DNA from: Candidatus Hodarchaeota archaeon
GTDB lineage: Archaea > Asgardarchaeota > Lokiarchaeia > Sigyniarchaeales > SOKP01
Direction of reading: 5' to 3'
Assembly: GCA_048887225.1 (NCBI GenBank)
Contig: JBHLJY010000003.1
Coordinates: 1-64,000 of the forward strand
DNA length: 64,000 nucleotides
Under the pieces are notes generated by a model. That model had not been told where the DNA came from and did no database searches. It saw only the letters and a program-made list of their open reading frames with translations. A program made the position numbers and the translations under genes. Of this stretch, positions 62,319-63,811 are shown piece after piece. How positions within the stretch are numbered: the first letter of the stretch is position 1; each line of letters opens with the position of its first letter.

Positions 62319-63143
62319 CTAACATACTAAACAATTTTCTCTCTTTTCTAAAATATAACTTTCTAAAGTGTTGGAAAATAGGTCAAATATGATTCGATTT
62401 GGGCAATCTTTTCTATGGATTGCTTGAATTAATATATTCACTGCTAAAGTCGAAGAAACCATTGCTGTTAGAATCATAGTTGCTCCAAATTCTAGATTTT
62501 TAAAATCATGGTTCTCCAGTTCTTTCCAATCTATTTTCTCGAATGATAAGATATTATCTTGTGAAAATTTTTTAACCATTTGTTTACTCCTCACAGAACA
62601 CAAAATTGCTTGAAGACATTCGTAACACGGTTTATTTCCGTCTGAAGCTTGATATAGAATCATCCCCGAATATCCAGAAAAAGGGTCAGTTCCACTATAA
62701 ATCATTGGTTTCCCTAGTTTTAAACATACAATACCAACTAATGATCTCTTTATTTCTGGTAAATCTAAACTATTCATGATAAAATCACTTTCCTTAACGA
62801 TTTCTACTGTTTTTTGCCAATCCTCAAAAATGTCGTAATTGTAGGCTACGATTTCTGAAGATAAATTATCCAAACGATCTAATGTATTTTTTGCTACGTT
62901 GGCTTTATTCTTTCCGATATCTTTCTTTGAATAAAGAGTTTGTCTATTTAAGTTTGAGGCCTCAACGATGTCGTAATCAACTAAAATTATTTTTTTAAAT
63001 CCAATTCTCGTAGCTAATAATGCAATATTGCAACCTATACCTCCAATCCCTAAAATAGACAAAATCGACGATCTTATTTTATTCTGCGAAAACCATGGTA
63101 TTTTTTCTTGACGGGAGAAAAATCTATTATTATATTTACTCAT
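62319..63143 (-). CDS. E1-like ubiquitin-like-protein activating enzyme (ThiF/MoeB/UBA5 family)
   Basis: FSRQ, GIGGIG, DYDIVEASNLNRQ, GKNK, Zn pairs CYEC and CLVC; start moved to ATG 63143. Confidence 0.92.
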   Translation of the reverse strand: MSKYNNRFFSRQEKIPWFSQNKIRSSILSILGIGGIGCNIALLATRIGFKKIILVDYDIVEASNLNRQTLYSKKDIGKNKANVAKNTLDRLDNLSSEIVAYNYDIFEDWQKTVEIVKESDFIMNSLDLPEIKRSLVGIVCLKLGKPMIYSGTDPFSGYSGMILYQASDGNKPCYECLQAILCSVRSKQMVKKFSQDNILSFEKIDWKELENHDFKNLEFGATMILTAMVSSTLAVNILIQAIHRKDCPNRIIFDLFSNTLESYILEKRENCLVC

Positions 63144-63220
63144 AATTAATGAGAAAAAAGGAGTAAAGAAATATAAAAATAACAAATTTAAATAATAAAA
63201 AATTATAAAAAAAAAAATTT

Positions 63221-63481
63221 TTAAATCAAAAATCCTCCTGCTTGCGTAGCCATAACAGTTATTACGTCTTTTTTAGGGTGAATCCCGATTTTAGCAAATT
63301 TTAAATTATCTGGTAGTACCTTTCCTTTAAAAATAAATTGAATTGCCAAGATAGGATTCAATTTATATTCTCTCTGAACTGATTTTTTGATATCAGCAAT
63401 ATTTTGATTAGGATCTACCTCAATTAATTTAATAGCTTGGTCTGGAGGGACACCAGTAAGTCGGAACCTATATTGAGTAAT
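63221..63481 (-). CDS. Ubiquitin-like protein precursor (86 aa, GG-FLI C-terminus; ATT start)
   Basis: (M)TQYRFRLTGVPPDQAIKLIEVDPNQNIADIKKSVQREYKLNPILAIQFIFKGKVLPDNLKFAKIGIHPKKDVITVMATQAGGFLI*; aligns by eye to ubiquitin; adjacent to the E1. Confidence 0.88.
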   Translation of the reverse strand: MTQYRFRLTGVPPDQAIKLIEVDPNQNIADIKKSVQREYKLNPILAIQFIFKGKVLPDNLKFAKIGIHPKKDVITVMATQAGGFLI

Positions 63482-63622
63482 TTTTTATCACTTTCTTTTT
63501 TTAGATTAGGATTTATTATATCTATTATATCATTTGAAATAATTAAGGATTTTTATCTAAATAATTATACTTAAGTTTGATGTTTTAAAATTTAAATCTA
63601 TTCCCAAGATAAAATTTGATCT

Positions 63623-63811
63623 TTAAATTCGAAATGGTTCGGGTGGTGGCGGGGGACCAGGTGGTGCTGGGCCTGGATGAATAGGAGGGCTTGGTCGAAA
63701 CGGAGGGCGTTGAAATAAGTTTTCTAAGGACGAAAGTCGATTTTCTAACTCATCTATTTTTTTTTCAATTTTATTTATCCTTTCCAATAAATTCGGGTTT
63801 TCTATTGACAT
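63623..63811 (-). CDS. Small coiled-coil plus polyproline protein
   Basis: LLERINKIEKKIDELENRLSSLE followed by RPPFRPSPPIHPGPAPPGPPPPPEPF. Confidence 0.75.
   Translation of the reverse strand: MSIENPNLLERINKIEKKIDELENRLSSLENLFQRPPFRPSPPIHPGPAPPGPPPPPEPFRI

Follow-up and report, generated by a model that had tools for sequence, protein, structure and literature searches.

We have analysed a window of 64,000 nucleotides (nt), positions 1 to 64,000 of contig JBHLJY010000003.1 from a Candidatus Hodarchaeota archaeon (genome of 3.27 Mb, 30.5% GC), with regard to a short minus-strand frame that encodes a ubiquitin-like protein (Ubl). The frame is flanked on its 5' side by a gene for a 62-amino-acid (aa) protein and on its 3' side by a gene for a small enzyme that resembles E1 (ubiquitin-activating) enzymes, the ATG of which (63143) lies 77 nt past the Ubl stop on the same strand, as had been stated in an earlier reading made from the sequence alone. 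We describe below that the Ubl gene is a real member of the ubiquitin family with a beta-grasp product, and that it very probably starts at an ATT codon. Coordinates are collected in Table 1; a tRNA scan found no tRNA in the window.

Table 1. The Ubl locus and other loci of the same genome that are referred to in the text. Positions are those of the window unless a contig (C) or locus (L) of the genome is named.
Feature	Position	Strand	Content or basis
Ubiquitin-family precursor gene	63221..63481	minus	86 codons + TAA, ATT start; PF00240, fold, orthologues
Probable ATT initiation codon	63479..63481	minus	ATG position in orthologues of other genera
Shine-Dalgarno-like AAGTGAT, -12 to -6 of ATT	63487..63493	minus	16S 3' end complementarity, genome-wide spacing
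Gly-Gly codons GGA GGA, putative conjugation end	63233..63238	minus	translation, family alignment
FLI, putative C-terminal propeptide after Gly-Gly	63224..63232	minus	translation
T11 run, 4 nt past Ubl stop	63207..63217	minus	likely archaeal oligo-T terminator (function inferred)
274-aa single-domain ThiF/MoeB/UBA5-type adenylating enzyme (E1-like), accessory gene	62319..63143	minus	PF00899, AF2 (AlphaFold2) model
62-aa coiled-coil and polyproline protein	63623..63811	minus	open reading frame list, tblastn; conserved upstream neighbour of Ubl
Operon with divergent Ubl	L070 = C2:175500-182500		divergent Ubl (acidic N-terminal extension, ends STAG), E1 408 aa, E2 175 aa, JAB 265 aa, 385-aa protein
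E2 and larger E1	L071 = C2:234500-243500		E2 169 aa, HAD hydrolase, E1 526 aa; adjoining 843-aa MIT/TPR protein
MoeB-like gene	L023:9999-11130 = C3:71998-73129		MoeB-like 249-aa ThiF-family gene (C3:71998-72747) and Roadblock/LC7-like 126-aa gene
HisA	C3:134405-135136	minus	this and the next 5 rows: L060-L066
Ras-like GTPase	C5:75679-76335	plus	
PGM/GlmM-like (PGM, phosphoglucomutase)	C1:201604-203031	minus	
ABC ATPase	C6:137493-138239	minus	
SucD	C32:14788-15648	minus	
HdrB-like	C33:4525-5874	plus	
uS11 candidate	C1 ~226340-226735	minus	
V-type ATPase subunit D and mevalonate kinase candidates	C3 near 118797 and 203803	plus	

Translation of positions 63221-63499 on the minus strand gives KRK-stop-stop-KITQYRFRL...ATQAGGFLI-stop. 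The Ubl frame within it, (I)TQYRFRLTGVPPDQAIKLIEVDPNQNIADIKKSVQREYKLNPILAIQFIFKGKVLPDNLKFAKIGIHPKKDVITVMATQAGGFLI followed by a stop, is open throughout from the ATT at 63481-63479 to the TAA at 63223-63221, and an in-frame TGA TAA pair, which the sequence-only reading had placed just 5' of AAA ATT, is present two codons 5' of the ATT. In the list of open reading frames (ORFs) with ATG, GTG or TTG starts, this 86-codon frame is missing, as had been noticed, and its place is taken by a 46-aa fragment with a TTG start (63221-63361), the first canonical start in the frame being codon 41. In the structural model described below, that fragment is without strands 1 and 2 and the helix. The related prediction that gene callers limited to these 3 codons would miss or truncate the gene is borne out by relatives, for which there is either no call at all or a shortened form that begins with VPPDQ... 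or MPPDQ....

By several measures, the product of the full frame is a ubiquitin. It scored 37.4 bits against the Pfam ubiquitin profile PF00240 (cut-off 25.4, E 2.2e-9; 36.6 bits in the whole-genome scan), and in a phmmer comparison with PDB sequences its residues 19-76 aligned with ubiquitin 15-71, pairing IEVDPNQNIADIKKSVQ with LEVEPSDTIENVKAKIQ and FIFKGKVLPD with LIFAGKQLED and retaining the equivalents of I44 and K48; a likeness first seen by eye is thus reproduced by alignment and by a profile score above the cut-off. A beta-grasp fold had been expected, and the AF2 model built from an alignment of 38 family members has this fold, with the order beta-beta-alpha-beta-beta and a mean pLDDT (predicted local distance difference test) of 91.5. 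The top Foldseek matches of the model were ubiquitin, at TM (template modelling) scores of 0.73-0.84, and the top 50 comprised ubiquitin, SUMO, NEDD8, ISG15 and the Caldiarchaeum ubiquitin (6fnn_C; PDB 6fnn is a complex of ubiquitin with an Rpn11 homologue). In the family alignment, the residues equivalent to the Leu8/Ile44/Val70 patch (L7, I49 and V75), together with K53, the equivalent of K48, are invariant or nearly so. A further suggestion, that the N-terminus recalls UFM1, did not hold: a Pfam scan of the Ubl gave no Ufm1 family match at E<=1, UFM1 was not among the top 50 fold matches, and the fold matches ubiquitin best.

The C-terminal end of the frame was likewise as first read, namely AGG followed by FLI. 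Of the Gly-Gly pair, G81 does not vary among the 38 family members and G82 is present in at least 90% of them, the ATQAGG end as a whole being invariant or nearly so, and the Gly-Gly pair is followed in orthologues by a tail of 0-3 variable residues (none, F, I, N, Y, K, LI or FLT). From this arrangement it is reasonable to conclude that the Ubl is made as a precursor, ...ATQAGG-FLI, from which the tail would have to be removed to give a free Gly-Gly end for adenylation and conjugation. A tail-removing protease would be required, and the genome encodes at least 6 JAB/MPN proteins, together with 2 E2 (conjugating) enzymes and 4 ThiF-family proteins. Ubiquitins of Caldiarchaeum and of Helarchaeia are also precursors with a C-terminal extension (PMC5654768; bioRxiv 10.1101/2023.07.25.550441), the helarchaeial pro-ubiquitin ending in GG-SPKN (bioRxiv 10.1101/2023.07.25.550441).

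Homologues had been predicted in other Asgard genomes, and Ubl orthologues, at 74-100% identity, were present in 35 of the 41 Lokiarchaeial genomes that are related to this one. The named orthologues are all from Lokiarchaeia/Promethearchaeota and include NEF87_002374 of Ca. Lokiarchaeum ossiferum, and some of the NCBI records carry the label "ubiquitin-like protein"; the family is therefore already known and annotated in relatives. For brevity, we refer to the genome under study as G000, to its sister genome as G002 and to a genome of the same genus as G009, with other G numbers for further relatives. The G000 and G002 proteins are 100% identical, their genes differing by 3 synonymous changes. 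In comparisons between pairs of genomes with an ATT start, the proportion of nonsynonymous differences (pN) was 0.01-0.065 and that of synonymous differences (pS) was 0.54-0.87, so that synonymous sites are near saturation, and the purifying selection also covers the 40 codons that precede the first canonical start. The combination of near-saturated pS and low pN, including the first 40 codons, argues that the full frame is translated and strongly selected.

The sequence-only reading had held ATT to be the only plausible start for a complete fold, and our comparisons agree with this proposal. Between the in-frame stops and beta-strand 1, there is no near-cognate codon other than ATT. The same codon is ATG in L005, L008, L010, L011 and L015-L019, and is ATT or, once, ATA in 9 of 19 Ubl loci, all 9 of which belong to one Lokiarchaeial family; K-I-TQYRFRL here corresponds to K-M-TQYRFRL elsewhere, and in other genera the ATG precedes TQYRF, VQYRF or PQYRF. 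A ribosome-binding site is also in place. The 3' end of the 16S rRNA, ...GGATCACCTCCT, contains the anti-Shine-Dalgarno (anti-SD) sequence, and 5-mers complementary to it were found at -17 to -10 of 14% of the ATG starts of long ORFs, versus a background of 6%. The genome-wide peaks before ATG were GTGAT at -10 (19/62), AGTGAT at -11 and AAGTGA at -12, and the GTGAT of the Ubl gene sits exactly at -10 of the ATT, the optimal distance for this genome. This spacing is kept, with differing spacer sequences, in G002, G006, G009 and G001. In G008, G004 and G022, GTGAT stands at -9, which brings its GTG into frame, and gene callers give MIKITQYRF. The position of AAGTGAT at -12 to -6 indicates that the GTG here is part of the ribosome-binding site, its TGA being the in-frame stop. 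Neither a frameshift nor a different base was seen at the start in an independent metagenome contig from another study, which spans 63446-63649 with no indel and with the ATT and the adjoining A6 run unchanged. The initiator tRNA is normal, with a CAU anticodon. Taken as comparative sequence evidence, these observations make ATT very probably the start codon of the Ubl gene. Translation would begin at AUU (63481), on which the SD sequence at its optimal spacing would position the ribosome, and the codon would be read by the ordinary initiator tRNA.

Similar starts appear to occur elsewhere in the genome. We collected 79 open frames, each at least 80 codons long and opening immediately behind the TGA of an in-frame SD sequence, and read the codon at the optimal distance, +10, which was ATG in 23, TTG in 12, GTG in 1, ATA in 10, ATT in 7, ATC in 1 and CTG in 2; at 2 control offsets in the same frames, near-cognate codons numbered 5 and 4. 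In the cases of HisA, phosphoglucomutase and a Ras-like GTPase, the Pfam match sets in at residues 2-4 behind an ATA, and use of the first canonical start would remove the catalytic or P-loop N-terminus. The HisA ATA, present in G000, G009, G006 and G005, is an ATG behind the same GGTGA in G002 and other relatives. By these criteria, the lineage would use near-cognate AUU and AUA starts in many genes. For an Asgard tubulin gene, a "rare ATT start codon" has been reported, together with a ribosome-binding site at a suitable position (PMC13394414); a literature search on non-canonical start codons in archaea found nothing specific.

In addition, N-terminal motifs that precede any ATG, GTG or TTG and stand directly behind GGTGA or GTGAT were noted, as for the 3 enzymes above, in the conserved proteins SucD and HdrB-like (ATA in both) and in an ABC ATPase, for which the start would be CTG or a codon close by. 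Further candidates, picked by N-terminal motif alone and lying behind SD motifs, were uS11 with ATT, mevalonate kinase with ACG and V-type ATPase subunit D with ATA. An acyl-CoA ligase considered as an ATT-start case was rejected: its Pfam domain begins at residue 39, and an ATG stands at codon 37.

It should be noted that several observations weigh against initiation at the Ubl ATT or against a wider use of such starts. No RNA run was found to contain the Ubl stretch; raw reads of a related run gave zero coverage of the gene, and the Logan contigs of the best-matching run end at 63436, the start being confirmed only by the contig from the other study. In G008, G004 and G022, the in-frame GTG three codons 5' could be the start, and one of these genomes has ATA, not ATT, at the orthologous codon. 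Finally, a global scan in the SD register, made over codons 1-20 of every long frame, was noisy, with ATA weakly enriched (2.05% vs 1.6%) and ATT not enriched. Because this global scan was weak, the proposal of a genome-wide habit rests on the subset with an in-frame TGA and on individual conserved genes.

The neighbouring E1-like enzyme of 274 aa matched PF00899 at 142.6 bits and gave an AF2 model with a pLDDT of 92.4. Its best fold matches were ThiF, MccB, UBA5 and MoeB (TM 0.74-0.77), and the best PDB sequence matches of its adenylation core were SAE2 and UBA1 (E 8e-20). Across 30 orthologues, the GxGGxG and SNLNRQ motifs, the Mg-binding Asp and the Zn-site cysteines C173/C176/C271/C274 are invariant; of the Arg-Gln motif, most orthologues have R11 and at least 90% have Q12. 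Only 11 of the 30 have Cys182, which lies in the crossover region six residues past the first CxxC. The protein stops at the second CxxC and is without a catalytic-Cys domain or a C-terminal ubiquitin-fold domain. It therefore shares with the canonical E1 enzymes (UBA1, SAE2, UBA3) the adenylation domain but not the Cys and ubiquitin-fold domains, and it has the ThiF fold, the four-Cys Zn site and the N-terminal Arg-Gln that characterize the non-canonical single-domain type. As predicted from its sequence and model, it is an active-looking, Zn-binding, single-domain adenylating enzyme with no conserved catalytic Cys. In having one adenylation domain of ~270 aa, it is like the enzymes of the MoeB/MoaD, ThiF/ThiS, UBA5/UFM1, haloarchaeal UbaA/SAMP and MccB systems. 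Unlike MoeB, ThiF, UBA5, UbaA and MccB, it is without a conserved crossover Cys, a rhodanese domain or an E2-recruiting extension; also, unlike the MoeB/ThiF-type enzymes, it is closer to SAE2 and UBA1 in the sequence of its core, and no small beta-grasp gene is syntenic with it across its family.

The adjacency of the 2 genes had led to the proposal of a dedicated Ubl-E1 module, in which the 274-aa enzyme would be the cognate activator and the genes would be co-expressed. The adjacency itself is real: the genes lie on the same strand, 77 nt apart, here and also in G002, and the Ubl gene paired with the 62-aa gene is found within 2-3 kb of E1 orthologues at L057 and L092. The closeness of the E1 core to SUMO and ubiquitin E1 enzymes, and the invariance of its ATP-binding and Zn-binding residues, are likewise consistent with such a role. 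However, the predicted synteny was not kept across relatives. The E1-like gene has orthologues in 3 of the 41 relatives (with ~28 found in metagenomes), versus 35 for the Ubl. Among 12 E1 loci with upstream context, the Ubl gene is within 5 kb in 4 and absent within 4-5 kb in 8, and it directly adjoins the E1 only in G000 and G002; at L057, the 2 genes are 2.9 kb apart with four genes between them, at L092 the Ubl gene is on the opposite strand, and in G009 the Ubl gene is directly followed by HycI, with no E1. The E1-like gene is instead followed by a (HycI)-EndA-PIN/ATPase(-SIR2) block in 9 of 12 loci with context, and the lack of a conserved catalytic Cys also counts against the module. Lastly, the Ubl stop is closely followed by the T11 run, and T runs of at least 10 occur within 30 nt of 1.1% of long-ORF stops in this genome, versus 0.11% at random positions. 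With this run after the Ubl gene and a TATA-like TTTTTATATTT before the E1-like ATG, the 2 genes are likely to be separate transcription units, and the Ubl would probably form a unit of its own that ends at the T11 run. On balance, a conserved Ubl-E1 gene module is not supported, and we consider a dedicated module at this locus somewhat unlikely. We class the E1-like gene as accessory; its association is with the HycI-EndA-PIN/ATPase-SIR2 block, and it neighbours the Ubl gene in one lineage.

Two minor observations bear on these genes. Contigs of two runs (X1 and X3) have one T/A fewer in the T11 run (63207), either as homopolymer variation or as an assembly artefact. Directly 3' of most orthologues of the small E1 there is a gene, missing from the window, for a 65-76-aa protein (MAWGGSLN...GTKYYRI...; L056:4909-5106, L057:4911-5126, L058:4899-5129). 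This protein was considered as the true beta-grasp substrate and rejected, having no Gly-Gly end and no Ubl likeness and being absent from the window; the ORFs 5' of the E1 at L056 (102 aa) and L058 (135 aa) are not Ubls either.

The 274-aa enzyme may, as judged from its sequence, adenylate the Ubl. For most Lokiarchaeia, however, some other E1 must act on the Ubl. Most plausibly, the general activator would be the E1 of ~530 aa (526 aa here), which lies near an E2 at L071, in which the ThiF profile is split by an insertion of ~165 aa, and which has a match in many, not all, of the relatives listed. A MoeB-like gene of 249 aa was also observed 9 kb from the Ubl gene here and at 7-13 kb in many relatives; this reflects conserved regional gene order, not an operon. 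Studies of Ubl activation should accordingly take in the other E1/E2 loci, 'Ubl beside E1' not being a conserved module.

We therefore favour, as the probable reading, that the locus encodes a stand-alone, very strongly conserved Lokiarchaeial orthologue of ubiquitin, made as an AUU-started precursor, with the small E1 as an accessory neighbour. Like the ubiquitins of Caldiarchaeum and other Asgard archaea, this protein is a beta-grasp Ubl with Gly-Gly and a short, putatively removable tail, and its genome has E1-like, E2-like and JAB/MPN proteins. Unlike them, it is not part of a Ub-E1-E2-(E3)-JAMM operon but stands alone beside a 62-aa proline-rich gene, its conservation is far higher (74-100% identity within an order), and it has the ATT start. 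It is also distinct from the divergent ...STAG Ubl of the Ubl-E1-E2-JAB operon of its own genome (L070). Its closest known counterparts are the Promethearchaeota 'ubiquitin-like protein' entries and NEF87_002374, which are 74-96% identical to it, of the same length, and have the same ...ATQAGG plus tail. These counterparts begin with ATG or a called GTG and so were annotated; here, and in about half of the genomes of the family, the codon is ATT or ATA.

Near-cognate initiation at AUU is a property of infC and pcnB of E. coli, and in bacteria the regulation of infC is linked to start-codon stringency. The Ubl resembles infC, pcnB and the Asgard tubulin gene in having AUU behind a well-placed ribosome-binding site, with a normal initiator tRNA. 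On this analogy, the AUU could be a regulatory device that is maintained, as opposed to a product of neutral AT drift, and that ties the supply of ubiquitin to start-codon stringency (aIF1 activity), as with infC; the minimal, Cys-less E1 could then provide an E2-independent, SAMP-like route for a true ubiquitin-type modifier. If this were true, the Ubl and the Cys-less E1 would stand, as an intermediate, between the sulfur-carrier systems and the cascade of eukaryotes. We regard this combination as quite unlikely, and no autoregulatory logic of the infC kind is evident for the Ubl gene; it is one case of a lineage habit that includes ATA in HisA, the GTPase and PGM.

A different explanation of the upstream region is that initiation occurs at the out-of-frame GTG (63491), or at an equivalent ATG, and that a programmed +1 frameshift or transcriptional slippage in the A run then yields MIKITQYRF.... 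Indeed, G000, G002, G006, G009, G001 and G023 each carry, 7-10 nt upstream, a GTG or ATG that is out of frame by one, and the same GTG is in frame in G008, G004 and G022, in which it gives just that N-terminus. Yet the GTG lies within the SD motif and is not itself preceded by an SD sequence, the A run is just 4 nt long in G001 and G023, the would-be slippery codons vary (AAA, CAA, GAA), and there is no conservation of the short peptides encoded upstream; also, the ATT falls exactly at the ATG position of the orthologues, and other genes need ATA or ATT starts with no such upstream frame. We find a frameshift very improbable.

Even harder to credit is a Ubl gene that is dead or dying in the genus, in which ATG has decayed to ATT and the product is the 46-aa TTG fragment or nothing. 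The lack of a canonical start before codon 41 and of expression evidence would fit this account, but pN/pS is ~0.02-0.08 among ATT-start genomes with synonymous sites near saturation, neither frameshifts nor stops occur, the sister protein is identical despite its 3 synonymous changes, the SD spacing is constant, and the fragment would miss a large part of the fold. Least credible of all is an assembly or sequencing error in which an extra A moved a real GTG start out of frame, a view favoured by the six A's directly before TT and by the homopolymer-length variation at the T11 run but opposed by the same frame relation in five further species with differing spacers and by the independent contig without an indel there.

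With regard to the favoured reading, that of a stand-alone ubiquitin orthologue with an AUU start, the family, the precursor tail and Asgard ATT starts have each been described before, and its main value is for annotation. Catalogues of Asgard eukaryotic signature proteins rest on ATG/GTG/TTG gene calls, and at 9 of the 19 Ubl loci, within the one family, the most ubiquitin-like gene starts with ATT or ATA and would thereby be missed or truncated. A missed Ubl could yield false statements of ubiquitin absence and distort phylogenies. Being clean, conserved and small, the gene also lends itself to tests of near-cognate initiation in Asgard archaea.

The upstream neighbour of the Ubl gene is, by comparison with the E1, far more constant. 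As found by tblastn, the 62-aa gene lies 5' of the Ubl gene in L002-L009, L012, L057 and L092, and it was observed as a neighbour in at least 10 loci. The encoded protein begins with a coiled coil, has the polyproline sequence PPGPPPPPEP as its tail, and may be a functional partner or adaptor of the Ubl.

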